Assembly (NCBI GenBank): GCA_001784435.1
Contig: MFQZ01000001.1
Location: forward strand, 16,032 to 80,031
DNA: 64,000 nucleotides
Source: Candidatus Magasanikbacteria bacterium RIFOXYC2_FULL_42_28
GTDB lineage: Bacteria > Patescibacteriota > Patescibacteriia > Magasanikbacterales > GWA2-37-8
Direction: 5' to 3'
Shown: one piece after another, positions 5,749 through 60,288 of the stretch
Layout: every line of letters starts with the position of its first letter
Position numbering within the stretch: the first letter of the stretch is position 1
Notes under the pieces: model-generated
Told to the model about the DNA's origin: nothing
Databases searched by the model: none
The model's input: only the letters and a program-made list of their open reading frames with translations
Made by a program: the position numbers and the translations under genes

Positions 5749-6105
5749 TTATTTTGTTTTAAATGTCAATCTATTCAAACGTCCAGCGCGCAATTTATTT
5801 TTTGGCAACATTTTTATCACCGCGTGGCGGACAACTTCTTCCGGGTTCTCTTTTAAAACTTTTTTCAACGGAATTTCTTTCAAACCGCCCGGATGCATGG
5901 AGTGATGTCGAAAAAGTTTCTGATCTATTTTTTTACCGGTCAAAACAATGCCGGCCGAGTTTTCTACTACCACTTTATCACCACCATCCACATGCGGTTC
6001 ATAGGTGGCTTTGTGCTTGCCCATAAGTACGGTCGCGATTTTGGTCGCGAGCCGTCCCGGTTTTTCACCAGTGGCGTCAAAAACTACTGTCTTTCTTTTG
6101 GACAT
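5749..6105 (-). CDS. rplM: 50S ribosomal protein L13
   Basis: MSKRKTVVFDATGEKPGRLAT...L13 N-terminal signature; immediately upstream of rpsI as in the conserved L13-S9 operon. Confidence 0.9.
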   Translation of the reverse strand: MSKRKTVVFDATGEKPGRLATKIATVLMGKHKATYEPHVDGGDKVVVENSAGIVLTGKKIDQKLFRHHSMHPGGLKEIPLKKVLKENPEEVVRHAVIKMLPKNKLRAGRLNRLTFKTK

Positions 6106-6116
6106 ATCTTGTACAA

Positions 6117-6467
6117 TTAAACTAATTCAATAACCGACTGCTCGCCGCCATCACCGCGACGCACGCCGATTTTAGTAATTCTGGTATAACCACCTTGACG
6201 GTCAGCATAACGCGGACCGATTACCTCCATCATTTTTTTAATCACCTTAGCGGTATATAAAAATGTCCCCAAATAACGGCGGGCGGCCAAATTATTCTGT
6301 TTGGCCTTAGTGATAAGGCGCTCCGCTAACGGACGCAAGGCCTTGGCTTTGCCGGTGGTGGTAGTAATCTTTTCGTACAACACCAAACTTTCCACCAAAT
6401 TGGCGAGAAGTGAACGGCGTGCCGCTGTTTTACGGCCTAATGTTATTTTTTTCTTTTGATGACGCAT
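6117..6467 (-). CDS. rplQ: 50S ribosomal protein L17
   Basis: MRHQKKKITLGRKTAARRSLLANLV N-terminus matches L17 family; follows rpoA as in alpha operon. Confidence 0.9.
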   Translation of the reverse strand: MRHQKKKITLGRKTAARRSLLANLVESLVLYEKITTTTGKAKALRPLAERLITKAKQNNLAARRYLGTFLYTAKVIKKMMEVIGPRYADRQGGYTRITKIGVRRGDGGEQSVIELV

Positions 6468-6478
6468 ATCTTACAAAA

Positions 6479-7303
6479 TTACTTTTTCTTAGCGGTTTTC
6501 TTTTTAACACTTTTTTCTTTTTTATCCACTTTTTCTTCGGTTTCAATTTTACCTTCGGCCACTTCGGGGTCAACATCAGGTTTTTCCATGGTCATTTCCG
6601 ATTGATTCATCCCATCTTTTAAACTACCGAGCACAGTGGAAAAATGATCAATCAATATCTGCGTTGCTTGGGCAGCAGCTGACTGTGGGGTGATAGTGCC
6701 GTCAGTTTCAATATTTAATACTAATTTCTCGTAGTTAGTAATATCCCCCAAACGAGTATATTCAACTTTATAGCCGACATCTTTAATCGGAGAATAAACC
6801 GAATCAATTAAAATCGTGCCTAATTCATTATTATCTTTATTTTTTTCTTCCACCGGTTTATAACCACGGCCCCGACCGACGGTAATTTCCATTTCCAAAC
6901 CCTTGGTACCGGTCAAATTGCAAATAACCAAATCTTTGTTAATCACTTCCACATCGGCATTTTTTTCAATATCAGCGCCCGTAACCGGACCTTTGCCTTT
7001 TTTAACCAAATTTAATTTCACCGGCTCATCGGAATAAACACGAACCGACAACTGTTTTAAATTTAAGATAATTTCCACGACGTCTTCTTTTACGCCTTCA
7101 ACCGCGGAAAATTCATGGGACACGCCCCGAATTTTGAATGACTCTACCGAAGAACCCGGCAAAGAAGAGAGCAACACCCGGCGAAGCGCGTTACCGAGAG
7201 TGGTGCCATAGCCATGGTAACACGGCATCACGGTAAGCGAACCGGAAAACTCATCAGCACCCGGCTGAAATTCTATTTTTGATGGCAATAAGAAATTTTC
7301 CAT
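6479..7303 (-). CDS. rpoA: DNA-directed RNA polymerase alpha subunit, NTD only with lysine-rich tail (no recognizable alpha-CTD)
   Basis: N-terminal dimerisation/assembly domain motifs (GYGTTLGNALRRVLLSS); protein is only 274 aa and ends in KKEKSVKKKTAKKK instead of the ~80-aa alpha-CTD. Confidence 0.85.
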   Translation of the reverse strand: MENFLLPSKIEFQPGADEFSGSLTVMPCYHGYGTTLGNALRRVLLSSLPGSSVESFKIRGVSHEFSAVEGVKEDVVEIILNLKQLSVRVYSDEPVKLNLVKKGKGPVTGADIEKNADVEVINKDLVICNLTGTKGLEMEITVGRGRGYKPVEEKNKDNNELGTILIDSVYSPIKDVGYKVEYTRLGDITNYEKLVLNIETDGTITPQSAAAQATQILIDHFSTVLGSLKDGMNQSEMTMEKPDVDPEVAEGKIETEEKVDKKEKSVKKKTAKKK

Positions 7304-7312
7304 ACAAAAAAA

Positions 7313-7921
7313 TTAACGAGAATAAAATTCAACAATTGATTTAGCGTTGAATGGCTGGCCGGACAGGGTTGGATTATTTAAAATTTTAGCCGACAAGGCC
7401 TTGACGTCCAAACCGATCCAGGCCGGGGGTTCAACTTTATTTAACCCCTCTTTTAAAATTTCAACGATTTTTTTGTTAACTGATTTTTCATAAATTGCCA
7501 CGGTATCGCCCACTTTAACACGGTAAGAAGGAATGTTAACTTTTTGACCGTTCACGCTTACGTGACCATGGCCGACGAGTTGTCGACCGGCCGCGCGTGA
7601 ACTGGCAAACCCGGCGCGATAAGCGACATTGTCCAAACGTGATTCCAAATATTGAATCACAAACACGCCGGTATCACCGGTTTTCTTTGACGCTTCCGCC
7701 ACATAATTAGAAAACTGACGTTCTAAAATTCCGTAAAGACGTTTAACTTTTTGTTTTTCCAACAACTGCTTACCGTAGCCGGAAACTTTGGGACGGCGCT
7801 TAGACACACCGTGCACACCGGGCGGATAACTGCGTTTCGTTACCGGACATTTCGGAGAATCACAAAGTTTCTCGCCATACTTGCGACACAATTTATGTTT
7901 TGGTCTTAAATCTCTACCCAT
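7313..7921 (-). CDS. rpsD: 30S ribosomal protein S4
   Basis: MGRDLRPKHKLCRKYGEKLC... zinc-ribbon-like N-terminus and S4 domain; alpha operon position. Confidence 0.9.
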   Translation of the reverse strand: MGRDLRPKHKLCRKYGEKLCDSPKCPVTKRSYPPGVHGVSKRRPKVSGYGKQLLEKQKVKRLYGILERQFSNYVAEASKKTGDTGVFVIQYLESRLDNVAYRAGFASSRAAGRQLVGHGHVSVNGQKVNIPSYRVKVGDTVAIYEKSVNKKIVEILKEGLNKVEPPAWIGLDVKALSAKILNNPTLSGQPFNAKSIVEFYSR

Positions 7922-7941
7922 AACAAAAAAATTAAAGTAAT

Positions 7942-8394
7942 TTAGACGCGACGGCGTTTAGGAGGCCGACAGCCGTTGTGAGGAATCGGGGTAACATCGT
8001 TAATCGCTACCACATTCAAACCGTGAGTATGTAAAGCGCGAATCGCGCCTTCGCGACCACCACCTACTCCTTTTATAAACACACTCACTTCTTTGATACC
8101 ATAATCAACCACTTTATCAATGCAATCTTTGGCCACTTGCGAGGCGGCGTACGGAGTGGCTTTTTTGGGGCCTTTAAAACCAACTTTACCGGCGGATGAC
8201 CAACTCAAAACATTGCCGGTCGGATCGGCCAAAGTAATAATGGTATTATTGTAAGATGCTTGAACATAAGCGTGCGCGCGCGGAACTTGACGCACGGCTT
8301 TTTTCTTTTTGGTCTTGACCACTTTAGTCGCCGGCGCAGCCGCGTCAGTAACCGCTGGTTTAGTGGTGTCAGTTTTAATTTTTTCTTCGGACAT
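7942..8394 (-). CDS. rpsK: 30S ribosomal protein S11 with Lys/Ala-rich N-terminal extension
   Basis: C-terminal GLNVVAINDVTPIPHNGCRPPKRRRV signature of S11. Confidence 0.9.
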   Translation of the reverse strand: MSEEKIKTDTTKPAVTDAAAPATKVVKTKKKKAVRQVPRAHAYVQASYNNTIITLADPTGNVLSWSSAGKVGFKGPKKATPYAASQVAKDCIDKVVDYGIKEVSVFIKGVGGGREGAIRALHTHGLNVVAINDVTPIPHNGCRPPKRRRV

Positions 8395-8421
8395 ATATCA
8401 ATATATCAAAGTTGGGATAAA

Positions 8422-14706: not shown

Positions 14707-16020
14707 TCATTTACTCAAGATTTCTCCCCCACCCAAACATTCGCCTTTCAAGTAAAAAACAGCAAATTGCCCTGGAGTGACGGCGCGTTGGGGTTTGGTG
14801 AATTTGACGACGAGAGATTGCTCCCCGTATCGTGAGTACGGGGCAGGCTGTCGCTCGGAATGACAACTGGTTACGACACAATCTTGCAATTCTTGACGAT
14901 GACGGAGCCGTACTTTACATTTTAGCGGTAATTTTGGGGTTTGTCCAGCGAGCCAGTTTATGCCCGAGACAGTTATTTCTTTTTTAAATAAAAGTGGATC
15001 GTCGTTTGTGCCGACGATTATGGTGTTGTTTTTTGGGTTTTTTTCGATAACGAACAGTGGTTTTTGTTCCCGGGTGATTGCTCCCACCACCCCCTCGCCC
15101 CCTCCTCGGGCAGGAGGGGAGAAACGAACGCCGACGCGTTCGCCGATGGTGTAAAACGGCAGGCCATCATGTTCACCCAATAATTCGCCACTCGTGGAAA
15201 TAATTTTCCCCGGCTTGGCTTTTACTTTTCCTTTTAAAAATTCTCGCATTGGCATTTCGCCGACAAAACAAATTCCCATGCTTTCGGCTTTATCGGCCGT
15301 GGGTAAATTAAATTTTTTTGCGAGTGCGCGCACTTCAAGTTTAGTGTAACCGCCAATTGGAAAAAGTGTTTTACTTAATTGTTTTTGGGTGAGTTGGTTT
15401 AAGAAATAAGTTTGGTCTTTGTTGGTGTCGGCGGATTGTAATAATTTACAGGCGACTTTGGGACAGAGATCCCGACTTTCGTCGGGATGACAAGTGACGG
15501 GCTTGCCCGGCGTAACGCAGTGAAGCCGGGCGTAATGTCCCGTCGCGAGTTTATCAAAACCTAACTTTTGCGCTTTTTCTAACCAGGCGCCAAATTTTAC
15601 AAATTTATTACATAAAATATCCGGGTTGGGCGTACGGCCGGCAGAATATTGTTTGTAACAATAATCTAACACCATTTTTTTATATTCTTTGACAAAATCC
15701 AAACGGAGTAATGGTATTTTTAATTTCGCGGCCACACGGAGGGCGTCTTGATAATCGGCGTGCCAGCAGGGCTCCGTTCCGACTACGTCGGAACTACGCC
15801 CTGTAAACACACTACCAGAAAAACTTGCCGGGCGTAGTCCAGAGGACGAAGCCCAACTTGTGGGGCGTAGCCGTTCAGGCGAAGCCCCATAATTAACCAT
15901 AAAAGCACCGGTCACATCATAACCAGCTTTTACGAGCAAGGCCGCGGCAACGCTTGAATCCACTCCGCCGGACATTGCGACCAAAATTTTTTCTTTTCTT
16001 TTACTGGCCATACTGACCAT
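14707..16020 (-). CDS. mnmA: tRNA-specific 2-thiouridylase MnmA carrying in-frame GC-rich insertions
   Basis: PP-loop SGGVDSSV, GRTPNPDILCNKFVKF catalytic Cys region, C-terminal PQRAVTPGQFAVFY...CLGGGEI all match MnmA; three GC-rich palindromic segments add ~30, ~10 and ~10 residues relative to E. coli MnmA (from memory). Confidence 0.85.
   Translation of the reverse strand: MVSMASKRKEKILVAMSGGVDSSVAAALLVKAGYDVTGAFMVNYGASPERLRPTSWASSSGLRPASFSGSVFTGRSSDVVGTEPCWHADYQDALRVAAKLKIPLLRLDFVKEYKKMVLDYCYKQYSAGRTPNPDILCNKFVKFGAWLEKAQKLGFDKLATGHYARLHCVTPGKPVTCHPDESRDLCPKVACKLLQSADTNKDQTYFLNQLTQKQLSKTLFPIGGYTKLEVRALAKKFNLPTADKAESMGICFVGEMPMREFLKGKVKAKPGKIISTSGELLGEHDGLPFYTIGERVGVRFSPPARGGGEGVVGAITREQKPLFVIEKNPKNNTIIVGTNDDPLLFKKEITVSGINWLAGQTPKLPLKCKVRLRHRQELQDCVVTSCHSERQPAPYSRYGEQSLVVKFTKPQRAVTPGQFAVFYLKGECLGGGEILSK
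14805..14866. repeat. GC-rich palindromic element inside mnmA 3' region (family related to 17731-17835)
   Basis: tgacgacgagag...ccccgtatcgtgagtacgggg hairpin...gtcgctcggaatgacaa; right end nearly identical to cctcgctcgggatgacaa at 17810-17832. Confidence 0.5.
15099..15119. repeat. Perfect GC hairpin cccctcct-cgggc-aggagggg inside mnmA coding sequence
   Basis: 8-bp G/C stem in a gene that is otherwise AT-rich; encodes the extra PPARGGGEG segment. Confidence 0.5.
15771..15890. repeat. GC-rich palindromic insertion inside mnmA 5' region
   Basis: ccgactacgtcgg palindrome and ggactacgccc...gggcgtagtcc inverted repeat; motif tccgacTacgtcgga resembles attccgacGacgaagga of the 17731 element. Confidence 0.5.
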
Positions 16021-16637: not shown

Positions 16638-17711
16638 CTAATTGGCTACTAATTCTTCAATAATCTTTATCACCTGTTCCGGTTTGGCAATCGGTAAAAC
16701 TTCATGTAACCTCTGTCCAAGCGAAGCGCGTTTGTCCGGGTTATTAATTAATTCCTTAACCATTTGGGTTAATTTAAGCCCGCTATCGTGGGTTTCGTCT
16801 AATGCCAATACCGCGTTTTGGGAGCTTAATTTTTTCACGTTTTCTTCTTGGTGCGTGCCGTTCATCGGAATTAAAATAGCCGCTTTTTTTAAAGCGGCGA
16901 GCTCGGTAATCGTAGCAAATCCGGCGCGCGCCACTACCACGTCAGCCGCCGCGTAGGCAGAAGACATCTCGCTTGTAAAAAATTTATAAACATGATAATT
17001 GGAAAAAACATTTACGGCGCGTTCGTTTAATTCCGCCGGACGCTCACGACCGATCAAATGAATAACCTCATAATCACGTGGCCAACCACCGACACTTTCC
17101 ATAATTAATTTATTAACCGTCATAGATCCGGTACCGCCACCTAACGCAAAAATAACCGGCCCCGTGGCTGATAGGCCAAATTGCTTACGCCCTTGCGCCA
17201 CATCACAAGTTAAATCCCGCGCCGGGTTGCCCAACCACTGCGTTTTATGAGCGGGAAATTTACTAACAGTTTCTTGTAAAGCGGTAGTAATTTTGTCCGC
17301 GGCTCTGGCCATCAAACGATTGGCAAGCCCGGGGACGACATCTTGCTGGTGAATCCAAGTTGGAATTCCGAGTAACCACCCGGCCCAATGCAACGGCACA
17401 CTCACAAATCCCCCACCGGAAATTAATAAATCCGGTTTTTCTTGCCACAAAAAAAACAAAGAATTAAAAAACGCTAAAATAATTTTAAAAATATCAATAA
17501 TATTCCATAACGAAAAATACCGGCGCCATTTGCCGGCAATAATCGTATAAAACGAAAGGCCGCTTTCTTTTACCAATTCTTTTTCCGGACCATTTTTCGT
17601 CCCCACCCAAATAAATTCCGCGCCCGAATTATGACGCTTATAAATTTCGGCAATGGCCAAAAGCGGTACGACCGGCCCCAGTGTTCCACCACCGGACAAA
17701 ATTATTTTCAT
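16638..17711 (-). CDS. murG: Undecaprenyldiphospho-muramoylpentapeptide beta-N-acetylglucosaminyltransferase MurG
   Basis: GT28 N-terminal ILSGGGTLGPVVPLLAIAE and C-terminal GGGTGS...donor-binding region. Confidence 0.8.
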   Translation of the reverse strand: MKIILSGGGTLGPVVPLLAIAEIYKRHNSGAEFIWVGTKNGPEKELVKESGLSFYTIIAGKWRRYFSLWNIIDIFKIILAFFNSLFFLWQEKPDLLISGGGFVSVPLHWAGWLLGIPTWIHQQDVVPGLANRLMARAADKITTALQETVSKFPAHKTQWLGNPARDLTCDVAQGRKQFGLSATGPVIFALGGGTGSMTVNKLIMESVGGWPRDYEVIHLIGRERPAELNERAVNVFSNYHVYKFFTSEMSSAYAAADVVVARAGFATITELAALKKAAILIPMNGTHQEENVKKLSSQNAVLALDETHDSGLKLTQMVKELINNPDKRASLGQRLHEVLPIAKPEQVIKIIEELVAN

Positions 17712-17837: not shown

Positions 17838-19181
17838 TTATAAGTAATCTCTCAACTTAGAAATCAAATCCGTGCCTTGAATTTTTTCCAAGGCCTTGGC
17901 CTCAATTTGGCGAATACGTTCGCGCGTAACACCAAATTCATTGCCGACCTCTTCCAAAGTGTGGGTAACACCATCGCCTAAACCAAAGCGCATTTCCAAG
18001 ATTTTCTGCTCGCGTGGCGCTAATGTTTGCACCACCTGTTTCACGTAATCGCGCAAAATTTGCAAACCGGCCGCGCGTGATGGCGAAATATTTTTGACAT
18101 CTTCAATAAAATCAGCCAATTGTGTATCTTCGTCATCATCGCCCACCGCGGCTTCCAAAGAAACCGTTTCCTGCGAAATTTTCATGATGTGGGTAATTTT
18201 TTCCACCTCTTCACCCATTTCCGCGGCTAATTCTTCCGGAGTCGGATCGCGCCCTAAGTCCTGCGTCAAACGGCGCTGGACTTGCTGGAAGCGATTGATT
18301 GTTTCCACCATATGCACCGGAATCCTGATCGTGCGTGATTGATCGGCCAGCGCGCGAGTGATGGCTTGGCGAATCCACCAAGTGGCATAGGTGGAAAATT
18401 TATAACCCTTGCGATAGTCAAATTTTTTAACAGCGCGAAACAAACCGATGTTGCCCTCTTGAATTAAATCCAAAAGCGACAAACTTTTGCCCACAAATTT
18501 TTTGGCAATTGATACCACTAAACGTAAGTTGGCTTCAATTAATTTGCGCTCCGCCGCCTGTTCGCCTCTTTCTTTGCGTTTGGCCAATGATACTTCTTGC
18601 TCGCCGGTAAGCAAAGGAATTTTACCAATTTCCCGCAAATACATTTGAATTGAGTCCGAAGAAATTTCGCCTAAATCAAACGGCGTGTCCATATCCGGCT
18701 GGCTGCCTTGGAATTCTTTTAAAATCGCGCCGTGTTCTTTTTTCGCGCCCAAAATTCCGGTCGCCGCTTCAACAATGGCGACACCATTTTTTTCAAAAGC
18801 CGCGAGTAGTCCTTCGTATAAATCCAAATAGCACTCCGGCCGAGGCAAGAATGTTAACAATTCCACTTCGGTAACAAATCCCCGGCTCCGGCCTTTGGCC
18901 ACGAGCGTCCATAGTTGTTCCACGGTTGGCTCCACCACTATTTCCGGTTCAACTTTTTTAGCTTTTTGTAATTTAAAAAATTTTTTCTTTTTATTTTTCA
19001 ATAAAAAATGCGCCCGCGCGCGGGTGTGTTTGGCAGTTGATTTTTTGTCGACCGTGGGCTTGGCTTTTTTTTGAACAATTTTACGCTGTCCAATTTTTTT
19101 GGCTTTCGTGGCCGTCTTTTTAGACGGGCGAGCCGAAGTTTTGGATTTCTGATTTTTCAATTTTTTCCCCCGCTTGATCAT
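17838..19181 (-). CDS. rpoD: RNA polymerase sigma factor RpoD (sigma-70) with Lys-rich N-terminal extension
   Basis: Regions 1.2-4 conserved: [40 protein letters not shown]; C-terminal region 4 HTH. Confidence 0.9.
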
Positions 19182-19189
19182 AAAAAAAT

Positions 19190-21040
19190 TTACTTCAAAT
19201 TTTGAAATTCAATTAAAAGTTTATTTTGCTCATCGCGATTTCCAGATTTTTCCGCTTCTACCATTTGATGTTGCACTTCGGCTCGACGTCTTTTTAGCCA
19301 TTCATCTTTAATTTCTCGCACGAGCGCCAACACTTCCTCTTTCGCCCGCTCTTCATCATAATCCACAAACTCGAGTTCAGCCCGCATTTGCCAAGGGTTT
19401 ATATCAAAATCGGCCGTCAAAGTCAAATCAGACGCCTTCTTGATATTCGCGTTTATATTATACTGGTTTTTTAGCCATTCGTAAAGCGGTTCCGCACCAG
19501 AACCGGCATATGCCCCAACTGGCAAGATATCTGTTATACAAGAAAACAAGGCGGGATATTTCAAAACTGCTAACACACAACGTTCGCGACGACGTTCAAA
19601 ACTATCAGTAATAACTGGTTTAATAGTGGTTGTGACATCTTTTTTTGATTGAGGTAAGCGCGTTCTCTTTTGCAAATCTACAAGATTTTCTTTCATAACC
19701 ACAATATTAGTATCAAGCTTTTCAGCTATTAATTTTAACCAATGATCACGTATGATTGAATAAGGAATCAGACCAACGAATGATAAAAAATCATCAGCAA
19801 CTGTTTGCTTGTCTTTTGGTGATGATAAATTTTTTCCAACCAAAACCATATCAAAAAGCCATTCCATGATTTCACGCGCATTCTTTACTGCCATAAACCA
19901 AACATCTGGATTTTTTTTCAAACACTCATCTGCATCCTTTCCTGCGCCTTCAGGAATTTTTATAATACCAACATTTAAACCCTCTTTAATAGCCACCCCA
20001 ACAACTCTCTTCACCGCATTAACTCCGGCGCCATCAGCATCAAATGCCATTTTTATATTATTTGTATACCTCTTAATTAGTCCAAATTGATTACTTCTTT
20101 GTTGTTCCGATTCAGATAAAGTATCATCCGTTTCAAGCTTAAATGCCGTTCCCGAAGCCGCCACCACATTTTTCATTCCAGCCTGATGACAGGCAATCAC
20201 ATCCATTTGCCCTTCCACCATCACCACCAAATCTTTTGACTTAATTTCCGTTTTCGCTTTATTCAACCCATACAACACGCGCGATTTATCATATACCAAA
20301 GTTTGCGGAGTATTGACATATTTTCCACCCGCTTCCAAATTTTCATGCAATTGCCGTCCGGTAAAACCAACCACATCACCGTGCACATTCCAAATTGGAA
20401 ACATAATCCGATCACGAAAGCGGTCATAATATCTGGCTAAGTTATTTACCAAAACGGGCTTGCCCGGCGTAGCCGAAGGCGAAGACGGGTCTTTTTTAAT
20501 TGTGAGCCCAGCCGCCACCATATCATCAATTCCAATTCCTTTTTTTAATAAATATTGCGTTAACAAATCCCATTGATCAGGAATATATCCAACTTGCCAA
20601 TCCGCGATTGTTTCCGTTTTTAATTGCCGTCGCTCCAAATATTCGCGCGCTTCTTTTGACGCCGGCATGTCTAACAAAAATCGATGATAAAAATATGCGG
20701 CCTTGGCATTAACTTCCAAAATCCGATTTTTCTGACTTTTATTAACTTCACTTTGAAAATTATTATCTAATTTTACGCCCGCTCGATCCGCCAATAGTTT
20801 CAACGCCTCGGGAAAATCCAGCCCCTCCATTTCTTGCGCGAAAGAAAATATATCCCCTGATTTAGAGCACCCAAAACAATGCCAAAATTGCCGTTCAGCG
20901 TTTACCATAAACGACGGGGTTTTTTCCTTATGAAACGGACAGCACGCCTTCCAATATATACCCGCCTTTTTTAAAGGCAGATATTCGCCAATGAGCGTGA
21001 CAATGTCCAATTTATCTTTGATTGATTGCGTGTCGGTCAT
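19190..21040 (-). CDS. dnaG: DNA primase DnaG
   Basis: N-terminal zinc finger [12 protein letters not shown]...CFGC, TOPRIM region ([11 protein letters not shown]); immediately upstream of rpoD as in MMS operon. Confidence 0.9.
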
Positions 21041-21068
21041 AATAATTTTAATTGCGAAATCTCTTCAC

Positions 21069-22994
21069 TCATCCATTGTTCTCTGGGCCAAATTGTTCCA
21101 TTCGCATAAGTAATTTCGCTTCATCCATGTTATAAACATATTCACCTTTTCTAGTGCCTCGTTGCGTGCCAGTACAATTAACCTGCGTAAGTGAAAAAGA
21201 AAATGCATTGTTATTTTGCCATTTATTATCTCCTACATATTCCGCAGTATATCGCCCAGAATGATAACCGGAAATAGCCAAATTCGTCAACGATTGAATG
21301 TCGATAATATCATAATACACGCCACTATTGCAAACTCCGCCGTGCACCAACGCCACCAGCGCCAAATATCGCCCATCCGGACTAGGAAACAAATCCACCG
21401 CCGCGCCAAAAACATCATCCATAATTTTACGAATCTGACCGGACTTTGTATCTAATTGAAATAAAACACTATGACAGTTTTGCGCGCCACAATCAAAGGA
21501 AGTGTTCGCTAAAAAATATACCATTCCATCAACACTGGAGGTTGCGCTACTAATTCTTATAGATCGATCTGGCTCGAAATTTGATATTGCGTCAATAGTA
21601 ATATCGTTTTGTGCTGAAGCATAATTTAATTTAGTCACAAAACCATGCGCCGCTAAAAAAAACCCAATAACAAACAACAAAATCGGCCACCAAATATTCC
21701 CCCACTTTTTCTTCTGACTATTTTCCAAAACACAACTAACTAAATTCTGTGTTTGTTGCTCGTAATTTTTTAAATTCAACTTGCCGACCACAGGCACATT
21801 GCCTGTCCCGGCGTTATAAGCAACTACAGATTTTTTAAAACTCTCAGTGCTTTTTTTGTATTTCGTAGTATTTAACCATTTAAAATAACTTACGCCAGCG
21901 GCGACATTTTGGTTGGCATTAAACAGGTCAGATATGGGCGAGTAAAATGGTTTGCTATCGTCATTCAAATCAATCTTTAGCTGATTAGTTAGTTGAAATA
22001 TGCCACGACCCAAACGATCATCGGATGCCGGACCGCCGGTGGCATACACTTTATAGCGCGATTCGCAACCGGCCAAAGCCAAAACATACGAACTTTCAAT
22101 ATTTAATTTTTGCGCCCAAAATTTAATCAACTCAATTATTTTTTCTCTTTCTTGACCTTGGATTTCCACAAACGAAGACAAAACATAGCCAATTTTGCCG
22201 TGCGCCCCCACTTTATGCCAAACATAAGATTTGCCCGCGATAAATTTTCCAATGACCACCTCCTCTAAAATGTTAATCTGTTCACCATCTGCTAAACTTT
22301 CTAAAATTTTCGATTCATCATCTGGTTGCGAACGTAAATTGACTGATGAAGACAAAATAATATCCTGATATAATTTAATCCGACCAATTTTATAGTTCAT
22401 TTCAATGGTAGATTTAAATTGCACAATCACAGATTCCACCTTTTTATCTTGTGGCCGCTTTATCGTAATCATGATAGTGTCAGTGTCAGTTTTAGTTTCA
22501 ATTGATTTTTGACTGTGAGTATTATCGTTATATTTTACTTCTAAATTTTCAATTTCAATATTCTTATAAATAAAGTCAATCGCCGACGCGTCGTGTGACA
22601 ATGACAAAACTAATTTTTCTTTTATGTCAGGATTCATCTCCTCAACAGAAATATTCTCCAACATCGGCGCTTCATCTACCCAAAATCGCAATTTATGGGC
22701 GCCAGCCTTAAGCGGTAGTAAAATAATAACCGACTTGCTGGAATTTTTTAATTCATTGCCATTCCAAGTCCCTGGTCCTTTAAACTCGCGCTTTTTACCT
22801 GATAATTCCGTAAATAAATAATCGTCAACCTGCACAGCCAAATCATCATCGCTGAATAAACGTTTAAAATTCTGCCGCCAATTTTTCGCTTTAGCTTGAA
22901 TGGTAATCAAATAAATACCGTCGGCGAAAACGTTAAAATCCCAAACCTCTTGATCGCTAACAACACGATTGAATATTTGTGATTGATTTGGCAT
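21069..22994 (-). CDS. Lytic transglycosylase (SLT domain) with SH3b-like domain and central TM segment
   Basis: SLT motifs AGCESRY...GRGIFQLT...AYNAGTGNV; SH3b-like VNLRSQPDDESKILESLADGEQINILEE; hydrophobic WWPILLFVIGFFLAAHGFV at ~aa 435-455. Confidence 0.65.
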   Translation of the reverse strand: MPNQSQIFNRVVSDQEVWDFNVFADGIYLITIQAKAKNWRQNFKRLFSDDDLAVQVDDYLFTELSGKKREFKGPGTWNGNELKNSSKSVIILLPLKAGAHKLRFWVDEAPMLENISVEEMNPDIKEKLVLSLSHDASAIDFIYKNIEIENLEVKYNDNTHSQKSIETKTDTDTIMITIKRPQDKKVESVIVQFKSTIEMNYKIGRIKLYQDIILSSSVNLRSQPDDESKILESLADGEQINILEEVVIGKFIAGKSYVWHKVGAHGKIGYVLSSFVEIQGQEREKIIELIKFWAQKLNIESSYVLALAGCESRYKVYATGGPASDDRLGRGIFQLTNQLKIDLNDDSKPFYSPISDLFNANQNVAAGVSYFKWLNTTKYKKSTESFKKSVVAYNAGTGNVPVVGKLNLKNYEQQTQNLVSCVLENSQKKKWGNIWWPILLFVIGFFLAAHGFVTKLNYASAQNDITIDAISNFEPDRSIRISSATSSVDGMVYFLANTSFDCGAQNCHSVLFQLDTKSGQIRKIMDDVFGAAVDLFPSPDGRYLALVALVHGGVCNSGVYYDIIDIQSLTNLAISGYHSGRYTAEYVGDNKWQNNNAFSFSLTQVNCTGTQRGTRKGEYVYNMDEAKLLMRMEQFGPENNG

Positions 22995-23026
22995 AATTTA
23001 ATTTTAGATTTATATGAGAATTTTTT

Positions 23027-23150
23027 CCTTATGAAACGGACAGCACGCTTTCCAATAGATACCGGCCTTTTAAATCGGCAGATATTCGCCAATGAGCGTG
23101 ACTATGTCCAATTTATCTTTGATTGATTGCGTGTCGGTCATGGGAAATTT
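23027..23150 (-). pseudogene. Degenerate duplicate of dnaG 5' end (first ~41 codons; premature stop)
   Basis: ~90% identical over ~124 nt to 20917-21040; translates [23 protein letters not shown] ; direct repeat flanking the SLT gene insertion. Confidence 0.8.
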
Positions 23151-23154
23151 AAAA

Positions 23155-23949
23155 TTAACTATTTGTATCACCCTCACTACCGCTATTCAATTTTTTAATT
23201 TTTAAACAATATCGTGTACGAACTGATGAACGCGTTGCAATTCCCGATCCCATGAATGGACGAGGGACAAATGTATATTGAAAATTATAAACACTCTTTA
23301 ATTTTTCCAGTTCCTTACTCACATAAACACTGTGCTGTGTTGAAACAGGAAATATGCTAGCCAAACCACCCTGATGTAATTTGCTTATTATCATACCAAA
23401 AAATGAGTTCAGTTTGCGTTCAAGATTATCCGTGTTAAGAAGACCGGTACTACTATCCTCAAAAACATACGGAAATTCACCCCAAGTATTTACTATTAAA
23501 TCAAACTCTTCTGTCGGGTGGCCTTGCTCATCTTGGTGTTTTAATTCTAAAATTGATCGCCATTTAAGATCATCTTTTGATAAATTTTTTAAATTTCTAT
23601 TACGACGATAGTTTTTCGCTATTTTTTTACGTAAACCGGTGGTAAAAACTTTTATTCTGTCCCCAAACTCGGTTCTTAGTTGATCAGCATATAAGCCGGC
23701 ACCACCACCCATATCTAACACTCTGAATTTTCTATTCTGAAATTCTTTTTCTGATAAACGCTGTCTAATATATTCAATAAATGATTGTTCATGTAATGCC
23801 GCCACATCTAATCTACTGGTATGCTCGTCGCCCTCTGTTCGATCATATTGATAAGGTGGTTCTGATAACCCCTTTTCGCTGTGTTCTCCTGTAAAAACAG
23901 TATGCAATTCTTCATCGGAAATATCATGCGGCCAATGTCGTTCTGACAT
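23155..23949 (-). CDS. Class I SAM-dependent methyltransferase
   Basis: Motif I VLDMGGGAGLYA. Confidence 0.6.
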   Translation of the reverse strand: MSERHWPHDISDEELHTVFTGEHSEKGLSEPPYQYDRTEGDEHTSRLDVAALHEQSFIEYIRQRLSEKEFQNRKFRVLDMGGGAGLYADQLRTEFGDRIKVFTTGLRKKIAKNYRRNRNLKNLSKDDLKWRSILELKHQDEQGHPTEEFDLIVNTWGEFPYVFEDSSTGLLNTDNLERKLNSFFGMIISKLHQGGLASIFPVSTQHSVYVSKELEKLKSVYNFQYTFVPRPFMGSGIATRSSVRTRYCLKIKKLNSGSEGDTNS

Positions 23950-23964
23950 ATAAAAAATATTTAT

Positions 23965-25209
23965 TTATTCTTTTCTAAGCGCCGTCACCGGATCCAAACC
24001 GGCGGCTTTCTTTGCTGGGTAAAGGCCAAAAAATAATCCAATGACCGCCGAAAACCCAACGGCCAAAATTATTGATTGAATGGGGATAACATACGCCCAG
24101 ACGAAGTTATAATAGACCGCAATCAAATAAATTACAAGGGCAAAAATCGCGCCTAAAATTATTCCCACGAGTCCCCCGCCCAAAGTTAAAAGCACTGCCT
24201 CACTTAAAAATTGTCGCAAAATATCTGAGTTAGTCGCCCCTAAGGCCTTCCTCAAACCAATTTCAAAAGTCCGTTCGGTAACCGACACATACATTATATT
24301 CATAATCCCCACCCCACCAACCAGAAGCGACACGCACACGAGCGCCACGAGCAACATCGTAATTCCGTTCACGACCGAGCCCAAAATATCCGCCGCCTCT
24401 TTCATCGTGTTAACGGCAAAATCATCTTTATTCGGATCAGTAATATCGTGATTGTCGCGAATAATTTCTTCCAAATCCGTAACGGTCGCTGCCATGGCCG
24501 AGCGGTCTTTTACTTTGGCAATTATAGAGCGAAAATAATCCACGCCTAAAATTTTCTTTTGCAAAGTTGTTACCGGCACAATGGCCATATTGTCCATATC
24601 CATCCCAAAAGACGCGCCCCGCTTAACAGTAACGCCCAACACCCGAAACGCTTTTCCCTTCATATATATAGTTTGACCCACCGCATCGCTGTCGCCAAAT
24701 AATTCCTCTTTTAACACTGGGCCCAAAACAGCGACTTGCGCGAGCGACTCCTCTTCTTCTTTCGTAAACATTCTCCCGTCCGACAAATCCAATTTTTCCA
24801 CTTCTTGTAAATTATATCCTTCGCCCATGAGTAGTGAAATTTTGGTTTGGTCTTCGTATTTAATCGCCGCCTGCCCCATTGCCCAACCATACGCCGCAAC
24901 AATATTGTGGTGATTACGCACATCTTCCAAATCATGATTTTTTAAAGTGGTAATATTAATACCGGTGCTCTGACCAAAAGCATTATCACTGGAAGTTTTT
25001 TTCGTGGCCGGCACTTTTACTTCAATGCTAATCGTGTCCGGCGAAAAAGTTTCCAATTGCGACATTACCATTCGATCCAATCCCCGCCCGGCGGCCATAA
25101 TGGCGATGACGACCGCGATGCCGATGCTTAAACCCAAAACAGTCAAGACGGTTCTGGTCTTTTGAGATTTAAGGGCAGTGATAGCTAATTTGATGGGAGT
25201 AAAATTCAT
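23965..25209 (-). CDS. ABC transporter permease, MacB/FtsX-like (paralog 1)
   Basis: 414 aa; N-terminal TM, large periplasmic domain, C-terminal FtsX 3-TM bundle; tandem paralog at 25670-26914. Confidence 0.75.
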   Translation of the reverse strand: MNFTPIKLAITALKSQKTRTVLTVLGLSIGIAVVIAIMAAGRGLDRMVMSQLETFSPDTISIEVKVPATKKTSSDNAFGQSTGINITTLKNHDLEDVRNHHNIVAAYGWAMGQAAIKYEDQTKISLLMGEGYNLQEVEKLDLSDGRMFTKEEEESLAQVAVLGPVLKEELFGDSDAVGQTIYMKGKAFRVLGVTVKRGASFGMDMDNMAIVPVTTLQKKILGVDYFRSIIAKVKDRSAMAATVTDLEEIIRDNHDITDPNKDDFAVNTMKEAADILGSVVNGITMLLVALVCVSLLVGGVGIMNIMYVSVTERTFEIGLRKALGATNSDILRQFLSEAVLLTLGGGLVGIILGAIFALVIYLIAVYYNFVWAYVIPIQSIILAVGFSAVIGLFFGLYPAKKAAGLDPVTALRKE

Positions 25210-25212
25210 GTT

Positions 25213-25672
25213 TAAACTCTAAATACTAAACCCTAAATTCTAAACAAACCCAAAATACAAATAATAAATGTTCAAATTTTCGAAATAATTGCGCCAAATA
25301 TTTTCATAAGCTGTGTTGCTTCATCAATTAAAATTTTTCTTTCCGCTTCGTGTATTGTTAACGCGTCCACTAATCTCAACCACAAAACTGATTCTTTTGC
25401 TTCTTTGCGACAAATCTTAATTCTCATTACAAAATCCTTTTTACTTAACGACTCACTTGCTTCAATATAATTCGCAGCAACCGAACCTGACGAACGAATT
25501 AATTGCTTGGCATATTCTATATTTGATATATTTCTTGGTAATTTTTTTACAAATAATTTTGTATTATAAGCAAATTTAAATATTCTATCGTGTAAATCAA
25601 ACACCGGTTTTGGATTTTGTATTTCAGACATTTGAACTTGTTTAGAATTTAGGGTTTAGAGTTTAGTATTTA
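25213..25672. mobile_element. Miniature element: four-helix-bundle protein gene flanked by 35-bp imperfect inverted repeats built from TTTAG-type units
   Basis: Left taaactctaaatactaaaccctaaattctaaacaa (25213-25247) vs reverse complement of right (25638-25672) taaatactaaactctaaaccctaaattctaaacaa; sits exactly between stop of one permease paralog and start of the other. Confidence 0.5.
25272..25631 (-). CDS. Four-helix-bundle protein (23S rRNA intervening-sequence protein family)
   Basis: 119 aa all-helical protein, A..YIEA..S.S...F....I...EA.ES.YWL motif characteristic of this family. Confidence 0.65.
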   Translation of the reverse strand: MSEIQNPKPVFDLHDRIFKFAYNTKLFVKKLPRNISNIEYAKQLIRSSGSVAANYIEASESLSKKDFVMRIKICRKEAKESVLWLRLVDALTIHEAERKILIDEATQLMKIFGAIISKI

Positions 25673-26914
25673 TTCGTACCTAAGCGCTTCAATAGGATTT
25701 AATTTTGCCGCCTTCCGCGCCGGCACAATCCCAAACAACATTCCGATCCCAACCGATACCACACAACCCAAGACAATCGACGGGATACTAATAATAAAAT
25801 CCCAGTCATAGCCAAGCGAACGCACCACCAGTGAAATTATATAAGAAATAAAAATACCAGAAATAATTCCGATCACGCCACCAATAAAAGTTATCATCAC
25901 GGTCTCAACTAAAAATTGTTCAATAATATTACGATTGGTCGCCCCAACGGCTTTGCGCAAACCAATTTCACGCGTGCGTTCTTGCACCGCCGCGAGCATG
26001 ATATTCATAATCCCAACGCCACCCACGACAAGCGCAATCGCCGCCACGGCTGCTAAAAATAATTTTAAAGCGTTGGTAATTTGCGTAATTGCTTCCAAAC
26101 CCTGCGCCATTGATCGCACCGAAAAATCATCCTCTTCCGGCCGGTCAATTTTGTGGCGTTCGCGTAAAAATATCCGCGCGTCTTCCATCGCCGCGTCAAC
26201 ATTGTCCGGATTATCCACTTTTAAACGCGCGAAGCTAATATAATCAATGCCCAATAATAATTTTTGCGCGGTATTAAGTGGCACAAAAATTTGGTCATCT
26301 TGATTTTGAAAACCAGACACACCGCGTGTTTTCATCACACCAATAACATTAAACGAGGATTTTTTTATTTTAATTTGCGCGCCCACCGGATCTTCTTCGC
26401 CAAATAATTCTTTGGCCACCGTACTGCCTAACACGGCCACGCGCGCCATACTACGCTCTTCTTCTTCGGTAAAAAATCTCCCATTTTCAACTTTGGCATT
26501 TTCCACTTCCACAATAGACGCGTTAACGCCGGTAAAACTGGTGTCGGTTTGATTGTCACCCCAAACAATCGTATCAGTGCCTTTGACATAGCCGGTGCCG
26601 GCAACAACGTGCGCCGAACCGCTCCGAATTAATTCGCGGATATCACTGTCTTTCAAAGTCGTAACCACAATTCCCATCGCTGACGCCGGTGGGCCTTTTT
26701 CATCAGACGCGCCCGGAAGCACACCAATTAAATCCGAACCCAAACTTTTTACTTGATTTAAAATCATCCCCTGCGCGCCCGCACCGGCTGACAAAACAAT
26801 TATCACCGACATCACACCAATTATCACCCCAAGCATAGTTAAAAATGACCGAATTTTATTCCGGCCCAATACTCGCCAGATGGCGTGGATGTTGTCGAGG
26901 AGGTGCATAATCAC
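25670..26914 (-). CDS. ABC transporter permease, MacB/FtsX-like (paralog 2)
   Basis: 414 aa; same architecture as 23965-25209. Confidence 0.75.
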   Translation of the reverse strand: MIMHLLDNIHAIWRVLGRNKIRSFLTMLGVIIGVMSVIIVLSAGAGAQGMILNQVKSLGSDLIGVLPGASDEKGPPASAMGIVVTTLKDSDIRELIRSGSAHVVAGTGYVKGTDTIVWGDNQTDTSFTGVNASIVEVENAKVENGRFFTEEEERSMARVAVLGSTVAKELFGEEDPVGAQIKIKKSSFNVIGVMKTRGVSGFQNQDDQIFVPLNTAQKLLLGIDYISFARLKVDNPDNVDAAMEDARIFLRERHKIDRPEEDDFSVRSMAQGLEAITQITNALKLFLAAVAAIALVVGGVGIMNIMLAAVQERTREIGLRKAVGATNRNIIEQFLVETVMITFIGGVIGIISGIFISYIISLVVRSLGYDWDFIISIPSIVLGCVVSVGIGMLFGIVPARKAAKLNPIEALRYE

Positions 26915-31910: not shown

Positions 31911-32025
31911 TTAATTTCAAAATCCAAATTTCCAATTTCCAAAATAATGTCAAAGCCAAAATGTCAAATTTGATATTTTGATTTTGGATTTGATTTGACA
32001 TTGGAAATTGGAAATTTGACATTAC
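31911..32025. repeat. ~115-bp AT-rich foldback (inverted pair of the TTTGACATTGGAAATTTGGATTTTGAAATTAA motif) between pilT and cca
   Basis: Left arm ttaatttcaaaatccaaatttccaa...aatgtcaaagcc is reverse complement of right arm ...tttgacattggaaattggaaatttgacatt; solo copies at 839-866 and 60246-60288. Confidence 0.55.
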
Positions 32026-39950: not shown

Positions 39951-40023
39951 CGGGCTATAGCGCAGTTGGTAGCGCGCGTGGTTCGGGACCACGAGGCCGT
40001 GGGTTCAAATCCCACTAGCCCGA
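39951..40023 (+). tRNA. tRNA-Pro (anticodon CGG)
   Basis: Manual cloverleaf: acceptor CGGGCUA/UAGCCCG, D-arm GCGC-AGUUGGUA-GCGC, anticodon stem CGUGG/CCACG loop UUCGGGA, T-arm GUGGGUUCAAAUCCCAC. Confidence 0.8.
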
Positions 40024-40028
40024 CACAT

Positions 40029-40370
40029 TAAAAAAGAAAGCAAATGCTTTCTTTTTTAATGTGTCGCAGTCACTGAACGACGTGCGAACCTTTTTTGAAA
40101 AAAATATTATTGGCCAATAATCGAGTTTCCGCGCCCCGTCCGGCGGACGGGGCAACAAACAAGTTTGTTTTTTTCTGAAAGAAAAAGCGGAAACCGTGAA
40201 CCCGTTTGCCCCGACCAAGTCGTGGCAAAATTGTTCGCGACAAGCCCCCCCCCTGTCCGTTTGTGTTGAAAATTACTTTTTGCCTACCACCGCCAGAGGC
40301 GGGCAGGCGTATCGGGCGGGCGTGTCTGAGTGGCTGGTGGGTGGATATTAGTATTTAAATACTAATACGC
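40029..40370. repeat. Left copy of ~340-bp inverted repeat (IR-L) bounding accessory island; begins with hairpin aaaaaagaaagcaaatgctttctttttt
   Basis: ~88% identical to reverse complement of 54624-54968; contains conserved hairpins (ccccgtcc-ggcg-ggacgggg; ccgcc-aga-ggcgg) and ends inward with palindrome tattagtatttaaatactaata. Confidence 0.85.
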
Positions 40371-54623: not shown

Positions 54624-54968
54624 AATTTAAATATATATTTAAATACTAATACGCCCCACACACCGCCCACCCAAACAAGCCCGCCCAATACACCCACCCG
54701 CCTCTGGCGGGGACAAGCAAAAAGTAATTTTCAATACAAACGGACAGGGGGGGCTGGTCGCGGACAATTTGCCACGACTTGGTCGGGGCAAACGGGTTCG
54801 CGGTTTCCGCTTTTTCTTTCAGAAAAAAACAAACTTGTTTGTTCGCCAGTCCGCTGGACTGGCAGGCGGAAACTCGATTGCTGGCCAATAATATTTTTTT
54901 CAAAAAAGGTTCGCACGTCGTTCAGTGACTGCGACAAAACAAAAAAGAAAGTGGGTGCTTTCTTTTTT
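54624..54968. repeat. Right copy of ~340-bp inverted repeat (IR-R); inner end is the 28-nt AT palindrome string, outer end hairpin aaaaaagaaagtgggtgctttctttttt
   Basis: Reverse complement aligns with 40029-40370; hairpin maintained by compensatory pairs (gccagtcc-agcg-ggactggc vs ccccgtcc-ggcg-ggacgggg). Confidence 0.85.
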
Positions 54969-60264: not shown

Positions 60265-60288
60265 TGGAAATTTGGATTTTGAAATTAA
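60246..60288. repeat. Solo copy of motif TTTTGGATTTGGTTTGACATTGGAAATTTGGATTTTGAAATTAA overlapping GT2 start codon
   Basis: Shares 30+ nt with the arms of the 31911-32025 foldback. Confidence 0.5.

Follow-up and report, generated by a model that had tools for sequence, protein, structure and literature searches.

A lytic transglycosylase-family gene between an intact dnaG and a truncated duplicate of its 5' end in a Candidatus Magasanikbacteria bacterium

How did a single gene of the SLT lytic transglycosylase family come to stand directly upstream of the primase gene dnaG in an uncultured groundwater bacterium, Candidatus Magasanikbacteria, with a second, dead copy of the dnaG 5' end on its far side? 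The window, as we call the whole 64-kb stretch of metagenome-derived DNA that was analysed, contains the following features around this gene.

17838..21040, minus strand: dnaG-rpoD pair, then murG (Pfam matches; 8-nt gap between dnaG and rpoD)
19190-21040, minus strand: dnaG, intact, 616 aa (Zn-ribbon, DNAG_N, Toprim and DnaB_bind domains, Pfam)
20920..21040, minus strand: copy A, functional dnaG nt 1-121, contiguous with the intact 616-aa DnaG ORF
21041..21068, minus strand: spacer of 28 nt, SLT stop codon to dnaG ATG, no homology with the 13 nt preceding copy B
21069..22994, minus strand: SLT/SH3b gene, intact, 641 aa (Pfam), the single gene between copies A and B
22995..23020, minus strand: junction or spacer of 26 nt, from the end of copy B (..GGAAAAAA) to the SLT start codon, read from the sequence
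23021..23141, minus strand: copy B, dead duplicate of dnaG nt 1-121 (alignment to copy A)
23155..23949, minus strand: MT, 264 aa, probable SAM-dependent methyltransferase (weak Methyltransf_23 match and a motif)
23965..25209, minus strand: macB-type ABC permease (MacB_PCD and FtsX, Pfam, recorded for an identical gene)

The duplication of the dnaG 5' end described in the initial annotation is real. Positions 20920-21051 and 23021-23152 of the minus strand form a 132-nt direct repeat of 91% identity, the longest within the 64-kb window. Its high-identity core of 121 nt begins with the first base of the dnaG start codon (ATG), runs to GGAAAAAA and contains 8 mismatches and no indels (93.4% identity); the core copies, both on the minus strand and in direct orientation, lie at 20920-21040 (A) and 23021-23141 (B), so that the coordinates first given for the upstream copy, 23027-23150, were off by about 9 nt. 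Homology between the copies starts exactly at the dnaG start codon: bases -1 to -3 differ at all three positions, and 6 of the 13 nt preceding the ATG are mismatched in the alignment. Copy B begins 13 nt past the stop codon of the 264-aa MT-like gene, and both this position directly after a methyltransferase gene and the premature stop had been recognized correctly: a 23-codon ORF (23073-23141) ends at a TAA (23070-23072) that stands at codon 24. Seven codons are changed between the copies, five of them synonymously, the others being L23I and K24stop; the probability of at least five synonymous changes from eight random substitutions is 0.007. The copy B allele is marked by ATA13, CCG22, I23, GCC26, ATC28 and AAA31. 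The longest identical run is 38 nt. A regulatory RNA in copy B was considered and rejected, as the fold z-score was -0.57 and an Rfam search returned no match.

A repeat at a locus of metagenomic source might have been created by an assembler that joined two strain variants, and misassembly had been raised beforehand as an explanation of the duplication. An ENA k141 megahit contig (ERZ27254748) and a JGI contig (3300002209) are, however, 100% identical to the window over 9.9 kb, and an identical SLT protein is present in the NCBI record for this MAG; the separately deposited assemblies, which carry different sample accessions, agree base for base. Assembly at k = 141 spans the longest identical run of 38 nt, and copy B has diagnostic substitutions of its own. 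Logan unitigs (SRR2090171 and SRR3989339) end exactly at the common 38-mer, as expected of a true repeat. With identical separate assemblies and unitig break points at the repeat, misassembly is effectively refuted, and we give it almost no credence. All available assemblies represent one clonal population, so they offer no polymorphism by which to polarise the event.

The gene between the copies is a single ORF with SLT motifs, an SH3_3 domain and one internal transmembrane (TM) segment, as had been annotated. Its 641-aa product consists of a conserved N-terminal domain, SH3_3 (216-277), SLT (289-401), the TM segment, which is its one hydrophobic segment (approximately aa 438-456), and a C-terminal domain. 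Pfam matches were 1.5e-9 for SH3_3 and 1.8e-13 for SLT, the latter (PF01464, GH23) scoring 50.5 bits against a curated cut-off of 21.3. Across 13 homologues E311-S312 is invariant, while G331-x-F333-Q334 (GxFQL) and A392...G396 (AYNxG) are conserved. A PDB search with the single SLT sequence gave no match; only the family profile matched lytic transglycosylases, namely the catalytic domains of MltC (E = 3e-16), Slt70 and MltF. The protein shares the E-S motif, GxFQL and AYNxG with Family 1 lytic transglycosylases (PF01464; MltC, Slt70, MltF, EmtA) and differs from them in its Patescibacteria-specific arrangement of N-terminal domain, SH3b, SLT, TM and C-terminal domain and in having no signal peptide. 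On these matches it is a member of the SLT lytic transglycosylase family and a putative peptidoglycan-cleaving enzyme. A cluster of basic residues precedes the TM segment on its N-terminal side, and by positive-inside logic the SLT domain is predicted to be cytoplasmic.

The gene resembles its host in composition. GC3 is 0.352 and the codon-usage distance of 0.59 is among the lowest in the window; a foreign composition was rejected on these native-like values. Sixty homologues were found, most or all with SLT and with SH3_3 present or absent, and these are ordinary chromosomal genes of Patescibacteria in varied contexts (five contexts examined). Homologues on phage contigs, for which a search had been suggested at the outset, were absent from IMG/VR and from 50,697 phage records, and a phage or viral origin was rejected accordingly.

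We then considered whether the insert is itself an element. It comprises one gene with flanks of 26 and 28 nt, SLT being the sole sizeable ORF between the repeats. A novel junction at its upstream end, GGAAAAAA followed directly by TTCTCAT, accompanies an anchor in the dnaG 5' end, and an in-frame TAA 6 nt ahead of the SLT ATG means that copy B and SLT are not fused. No integrase, transposase or replication function was found inside the insert (ORFs and Pfam), no tyrosine or serine recombinase in or beside the repeats, whose neighbours are MT and dnaG, and no inverted repeats at the insert ends. Insertion of a transposon or IS was rejected, there being neither a transposase domain nor a terminal inverted repeat and the duplication measuring 121 bp as against the short one (2-14 bp) of such elements. 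An integron gene cassette was likewise rejected, since the sequence after the SLT stop codon is only 28 nt long, with no inverted repeat reported in it that could represent attC. Patescibacteria carry few classical mobile elements.

An integrase-dependent island could also have entered at the dnaG 5' end, supplied a replacement 5' end and since been reduced to one cargo gene. SXT/R391 elements insert at the 5' end of prfC in this manner and supply a new 5' end. As there, direct repeats bound the insert and an incoming substitute 5' end would keep the target gene working, and conjugative elements often carry lytic transglycosylases as cargo. Unlike at prfC, mobility genes, an integrase included, are absent, a long, diverged repeat takes the place of a short identical core, and the single cargo gene is of chromosomal type. 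Neither a relaxase nor any other gene accompanies it between the repeats, its non-coding flanks are short, its family is chromosomal and found in varied contexts, no viral or phage homologue was found, and none of 159 related loci has anything integrated in this way. We regard such a remnant as very improbable.

Comparison with related dnaG loci gave the insertion its polarity. The dnaG-rpoD pair is conserved across these loci, and murG comes next in approximately 40 of the closest. In 13 relatives a gene with 57-75% identity to the window's macB lies upstream of dnaG at a distance of 48-126 nt, and by this measure macB is the conserved neighbour on the left of dnaG within the clade. Between the two genes, relatives have gaps of 48 nt to 1.8 kb that hold unrelated genes; judged from these gaps, the interval is a variable hot spot at which genes are gained. 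The assignment of MT as a methyltransferase is probable: its Methyltransf_23 match in Pfam is weak (E 0.0047, 17.1 bits, under the cut-off of 27), and its translation contains a VLDMGGGAG motif. MT has a GC3 of 0.249, atypical for the window. No MT homologue was seen near dnaG among 160 loci; a protein search, which found only 7 homologues, then located them at the same position in the closest long relative (L173). There the order is macB-MT1-MT2-MT3-dnaG-rpoD-murG, with no SLT gene, and identities to the window are 64% for DnaG, 72% for macB and 78% for rpoD. MT and dnaG thus adjoin in an orthologous upstream region, and because they do so without SLT, the gene order indicates that macB-MT-dnaG-rpoD is ancestral in this sublineage, that MT is native to its position and that the SLT gene has been inserted, as first proposed.

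No SLT gene was found near dnaG among the 160 related loci and no duplication of the dnaG 5' end in 159 of them; the combination of SLT gene and duplication, which an ancient fixed arrangement would have left in relatives, occurs in none of the approximately 160. When closer relatives were sought with DnaG in GTDB genomes and JGI metagenomes, the best matches reached no more than 58-72% identity, leaving no sister haplotype from which the event could be polarised. The window was also examined for an empty ancestral SLT site, with neighbours such as DUF5674 or pheT; the ORFs between 40 and 48 kb, which encode a lipase-like protein, a two-component system and a SET-domain protein, proved unrelated.

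The three MT genes of the closest long relative are tandemly arrayed paralogues whose spacer is repeated (30 nt, 90%), which indicates that tandem duplication operates at this locus. The arrangement in the window might accordingly have arisen by serial local rearrangement, in which either the dnaG 5' end alone or SLT together with it was first duplicated in tandem and the same place then underwent a second insertion or deletion. This would, however, take two events or more, each with its boundaries placed precisely, and neither a second SLT fragment nor another intermediate is left. We consider this route improbable.

The locus reads best as a recombination scar and not as a mobile element, and we lean, with a little more than even confidence, towards entry of an SLT-dnaG donor by a single crossover. 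On the incoming DNA the SLT/SH3b gene would already have been attached to nt 1-121 of a dnaG gene, and the likely source of that DNA would be a closely related strain with SLT directly upstream of dnaG. One crossover within the dnaG 5' end, of Campbell type and with a circularised fragment, or else an equivalent one-ended homologous plus illegitimate join, would yield MT - dnaG(1-121) - junction - SLT - dnaG(full). Selection would then have kept the downstream copy as the start of the primase, while the upstream copy would later have been killed by the nonsense mutation K24stop, leaving its 23-codon ORF. This reading is drawn from the anatomy of the repeat, a single gene enclosed by two direct copies of 121 nt, of which one is truncated and the other intact. 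A start of homology at the dnaG ATG is expected if the MT-dnaG and SLT-dnaG contexts share only dnaG, and mostly synonymous differences fit two alleles that diverged as working genes and one nonsense change. Host-like SLT codon usage and chromosomal homologues in Patescibacteria fit a closely related donor. We also count in its favour the polarity given by the closest long relative, the macB-dnaG hot spot, the confirmation of the assembly and a precedent in E. coli. Counting against it, the SLT-dnaG haplotype was found neither in the 160 dnaG loci nor in the five SLT-homologue contexts, a sample in which close relatives are poorly represented, the best DnaG match being 64-72% identical.

The direction of the differences between the copies is also compatible with an origin in place. 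Copy A has the base of the closest long relative at 7 of the 8 sites at which the copies differ, which places seven of the eight differences on the copy B lineage and would also suit a duplication in place, after which B decayed neutrally. An SLT fragment, from elsewhere in the same genome or from taken-up DNA, would have been ligated or copied illegitimately into a staggered break or stalled fork at the dnaG start, duplicating 121 nt; B would then have decayed neutrally and A changed only synonymously. By our own calculation, seven changes in 121 nt on B, as against one synonymous change on A, fit a common neutral divergence of roughly 3-6%, and the native codon usage of SLT suits this reading. 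The synonymous excess has P of approximately 0.07-0.17 under this model (hand calculation). A random staggered break, on the other hand, leaves the exact start of the duplication at the start codon unexplained, as it does the four synonymous changes among the six codon changes assigned to B. No known bacterial insertion mechanism, to our knowledge, comes close to producing a target duplication of 121 bp, and a useless relic of 121 nt, diverged by approximately 6%, would have had to persist in a streamlined genome. We consider illegitimate insertion in place unlikely, though the least so of the alternatives to the single crossover.

The single-crossover reading has close counterparts in known systems. 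Single-crossover integration of circular DNA with truncated homology in E. coli leaves duplications of 109-950 bp, a range that includes the 121 bp found here, and was far commoner than true homology-facilitated illegitimate recombination (HFIR) (PMC3240628). Classical HFIR is predicted to delete recipient DNA, not to duplicate it, and duplications were assigned to single crossovers (PMC3240628). As in Campbell-type insertion-duplication, the insert stands between direct copies of the homologous segment, one of them truncated and the other intact; unlike in those experiments, neither a plasmid backbone nor a selectable vector is present, a 'circle' would have consisted of 2.1 kb of chromosomal DNA, and the copies are 6.6% diverged, the product of a natural event in an uncultured Patescibacterium. 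The initial annotation had proposed Campbell-type integration of a circular element; a crossover of that type is the best reading, given the precedent for duplication size (PMC3240628), whereas a self-mobile circular element finds no support in an insert of one gene and 26 and 28 nt with no integrase, transposase or replication function, no viral homologue and host-like codons. HFIR and cassette displacement in the T6SS effector-immunity arrays of Vibrio cholerae and in Rhs orphan arrays (PMC5361080) offer a further parallel: there too a conserved gene end serves as homologous anchor, a non-homologous gene is brought beside it, and old remnants are left at a hot spot. The present locus differs from classical HFIR in showing a duplication where a deletion is predicted, and from the arrays in that there was a single event and the anchor is a housekeeping primase gene. 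The event is of a known kind, an ordinary scar that reveals no new type of element or mechanism.

The locus is nonetheless a clean, assembly-verified case of a streamlined, uncultured CPR bacterium gaining a gene without mobile-element machinery. A more far-reaching reading, which we consider unlikely, would make the 121-nt relic a rare direct trace of how Patescibacteria generally gain genes: strains would swap accessory genes at fixed hot spots, through crossovers anchored in the highly conserved ends of flanking housekeeping genes. If so, the anchors here would be the 5' end of dnaG and the 3' end of macB, the cargo would drop into the dnaG-rpoD transcription unit, and the gap upstream of dnaG would act as an integrase-free 'cassette site' across Magasanikbacteria.

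Co-transcription of SLT with dnaG and rpoD, which had been put forward as a possibility, remains plausible. A consensus-match scan found no terminator-like site on the coding strand from MT to rpoD, so SLT is probably transcribed with dnaG and rpoD. Promoter-like matches, which are consensus matches only, were at background (26 found, 19.7 +/- 4.8 expected); none falls in the 28-nt SLT-dnaG spacer, and the nearest on the same strand lie inside SLT (21290-21261 and 21333-21304). A putative peptidoglycan-cleaving enzyme would thus probably be transcribed with primase and the main sigma factor, an arrangement that may tie its expression to growth.

The first 121 nt of dnaG occur twice in the window, as the functional 5' end of the gene (copy A, 20920-21040) and as a dead upstream duplicate (copy B), with a 641-aa lytic-transglycosylase gene (the SLT gene) between them. 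The genes of this locus, every one on the minus strand, are arranged as follows.

Features of the dnaG locus, in gene order
25670-26914, minus strand: macB, first in the locus
25272-25631, minus strand: 23S-IVP-family ORF (IVP ORF), between the two macB genes
23965-25209, minus strand: second macB, upstream of MT
23155-23949, minus strand: 264-aa methyltransferase-like gene (MT), after the second macB
23021-23141, minus strand: dnaG 5' fragment (copy B), between MT and the SLT gene
21069-22994, minus strand: 641-aa SH3b and SLT gene, between copy B and dnaG
19190-21040, minus strand: intact dnaG, after the SLT gene
17838-19181, minus strand: rpoD, after dnaG
16638-17711, minus strand: murG, after rpoD

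A repeat search of the window returned the two copies as a 132-nt direct repeat (20920-21051 and 23021-23152, 91% identity), the longest anywhere in the 64 kb. Its core, 121 nt long, opens with the A of the dnaG start codon and extends to GGAAAAAA, and over this length the copies are 93.4% identical, with 8 mismatches and no indels; the initial annotation had described the duplication accurately, apart from placing copy B about 9 nt off. The three bases just before the two ATGs all differ, as do 6 of the 13 upstream bases overall, so the start codon itself is the left edge of homology. A stretch of 13 nt separates the MT stop codon from copy B, which encodes 23 residues followed by TAA. The SLT gene starts 75 nt past this stop and, because an in-frame TAA lies just before its start, is not fused to copy B; its own stop codon lies 28 nt from the start of intact dnaG. 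The copy B region folded unremarkably as RNA (z = -0.57) and had no match in Rfam. The dnaG 5' end of one relative (L087), whose DnaG is just 55% identical overall to that of the window, shares a 38-nt identical run with copy A (ATTGGCGAATATCTGCCTTTAAAAAAGGCGGGTATATA, ~20955-20992), which may reflect either a short tract of recombination or convergence at the codon level.

Separately deposited assemblies were compared for the same locus, all representing one clonal population with no polymorphism among them to help. ENA ERZ27254748 (megahit k141, 207-kb contig) and JGI 3300002209 (47-kb contig) share this gene order and match the window at 100% identity across 9.9 kb, and the 641-aa protein is 100% identical to that in the NCBI record of the source MAG (Candidatus Magasanikbacteria RIFOXYC2_FULL_42, Rifle aquifer). 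Logan unitigs from SRR2090171 and SRR3989339 end exactly at the required k=31 graph branch point, a 38-nt run common to copies A and B; one 2,123-nt unitig, spanning offset 8 of copy B through offset 29 of copy A, carries the SLT gene alone. Because the k=141 contigs bridge the shared 38-mer, reads support the tandem order. Misassembly, raised earlier as a possible refutation, was ruled out by the identical, separately deposited contigs and by unitigs ending at the predicted branch point. The gene insertion is real and well supported, and a 121-nt duplication of the dnaG start flanks it.

A DnaG-based scan collected 80 GTDB and 80 metagenome loci (best DnaG matches 58-72% identical). Gene order in the closest clade is macB-macB-dnaG-rpoD-murG. 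By tblastn, none of the 160 loci contained a homologue of the SLT gene or MT, and self-comparison of 159 revealed no duplicated dnaG 5' end; the insertion with its duplication is unique to the window lineage among these ~160 relatives. The macB-to-dnaG gap is short (48-126 nt) in 13 loci; in 20 it spans 181-1,824 nt and contains unrelated small genes, which marks it as a hot spot of gene gain. A protein search returned only 7 matches to MT, the best three in tandem on one 63-kb contig (L173, JGI Ga0208246_1000161), the nearest relative with a long contig (identity: DnaG 64%, macB 72%, rpoD 78%, MT1 53%). Its order, macB-MT1-MT2-MT3-dnaG-rpoD-murG, answers whether MT and dnaG are normally adjacent: here they are, without an SLT gene between. 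From this order, the MT-dnaG adjacency is older than the split of the two lineages, and the SLT gene and flanking duplication are derived in that of the window. The L173 paralogues (6001-8398, between macB and dnaG) are 53, 44 and 42% identical to MT, and a 30-nt spacer recurring ahead of both MT3 and dnaG indicates local tandem duplication there.

Between the repeats lies the SLT gene with 26 and 28 nt of flank and nothing else: no integrase, transposase, terminal inverted repeat or attC-like structure. A search for phage homologues, of the kind the initial annotation had proposed, was negative: the protein had no relatives in IMG/VR or among 50,697 phage records. Its 60 homologues, of common architecture, all come from MAGs or metagenome contigs. 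Readable contexts are ordinary chromosomal ones (DUF5674 and pheT; a Trp-repressor-like gene and fructose-bisphosphate aldolase; asparaginyl/aspartyl-tRNA synthetase; ssb), none with dnaG alongside. The SLT gene is host-like in composition (GC3 0.352; codon-usage distance 0.59, among the window's lowest), the atypical genes of the locus being MT (GC3 0.249) and the IVP ORF (0.225). With neither mobility genes nor viral relatives, the insert was rejected as a mobile element or phage, there being evidence of neither.

Seven codons differ between the copies: five by synonymous third-position changes, one L to I and one K to stop. At least five synonymous codons would arise from 8 random substitutions with P = 0.007, and the pattern agrees with divergence of two functional alleles, one of which, once redundant, took a nonsense hit. 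The copies may instead have arisen by duplication in place, copy B then decaying neutrally while copy A stayed under purifying selection. That route predicts ~40% synonymous changes (P ~0.07-0.17 for the synonymous excess, hand calculation), and L173 as outgroup agrees with copy A at 7 of 8 variable positions, placing most change on the copy B lineage; it leaves the start-codon boundary unexplained, however, and a random staggered break would not place a homology edge at the ATG. Two haplotypes differing upstream (MT-dnaG and SLT-dnaG) would share only dnaG, and their homology would thus start precisely there. In E. coli, single crossovers with circular molecules carrying truncated homology yielded duplications of 109-950 bp, and were much commoner than true homology-facilitated illegitimate recombination, which is predicted to delete, not duplicate (PMC3240628). 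Because of the boundary, the substitution pattern and this precedent, we prefer a model in which the SLT gene arrived joined to a dnaG 5' end and entered through one homologous (Campbell-type) crossover, the redundant copy B later acquiring its nonsense mutation. The crossover proposed in the initial annotation is thereby retained, but not its self-mobile circular element; the donor would be a chromosomal fragment of a related strain. An SLT-dnaG haplotype was found in none of the 160 dnaG loci or the SLT-homologue contexts read. A comparable mechanism, in which conserved gene borders anchor the displacement, has been put forward for T6SS effector-immunity arrays and Rhs loci (PMC5361080). A known recombination route accounts best for the locus, which is a fresh instance of a familiar type of event.

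No terminator-like site was found on the minus strand from MT to rpoD. Promoter-like matches were at background (26 versus 19.7 +/- 4.8), with two inside the 3' part of the SLT gene and none in the 28-nt SLT-dnaG spacer. In many relatives a -35/-10-like pair is clearly recognizable 10-30 nt ahead of dnaG, whereas copy A has none; dnaG is thus probably transcribed by read-through from the SLT gene or from a promoter inside it. In the 60 nt upstream of dnaG in relatives L002-L136, many have a TTGxxx-N17-TAxxxT pair and no obvious Shine-Dalgarno sequence, which suggests very short leaders.

The SLT protein contains SH3_3 (216-277) and SLT (289-401) Pfam domains, and a 13-member family profile matched the MltC catalytic domain in the PDB (E = 3e-16), as well as Slt70, MltF and EmtA. 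E311-S312, GxFQL and AYNxG are conserved in the family. Neither the protein nor its family has an N-terminal signal peptide; a single hydrophobic segment (~438-456) has 3 basic residues on its N-terminal side and 0 on its C-terminal side. A basic cluster (KKK or KRK) on that N-terminal side is conserved family-wide (aa 420-470 region). Since the basic flank of a transmembrane segment predicts the cytoplasmic side (the positive-inside rule), the peptidoglycan-cleaving domain would be cytoplasmic, with only the ~170-aa C-terminal domain outside. This topology puzzle belongs to the whole SLT/SH3b family, not to the dnaG locus.

Other features of the window were also recorded. The IVP ORF (PF05635, 119 aa) separates macB genes that adjoin directly in most relatives, and 42-nt inverted repeats (25213-25254 and 25631-25672, 83% complementary) lie on either side of it; the region (25213-25672) has the appearance of a small insertion, similar to an rRNA intervening sequence. 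L173 has GrpB and a 211-aa ORF at this position. A 437-aa ORF (14707-16020), whose translation contains SGGVDSS and several Pro/Ser/Gly/Arg-rich inserts (e.g. SPERLRPTSWASSSGLRPASFSG), resembles tRNA 2-thiouridylase MnmA, though it seems longer than usual for that enzyme. A non-coding inverted repeat of ~320 nt (40030-40344 and 54656-54968, 91% identity), one arm beginning directly after a tRNA (39951-40023), encloses 14.3 kb with an HNH ORF, a lipase-like 804-aa protein, a histidine kinase/response regulator pair, a SET-domain protein and a 1181-aa ORF. Its copies have no Rfam family and share a multi-hairpin fold with 4 compensatory pair changes; they may represent either a structured RNA or the termini of a segment that inverts or moves. 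Intergenic positions at 812-879, 31911-32024 and 60220-60288 contain an interspersed AT-rich motif (GGATTTGATTTGACATTGGAAATT with a palindromic partner; families D2, I5 and I6).
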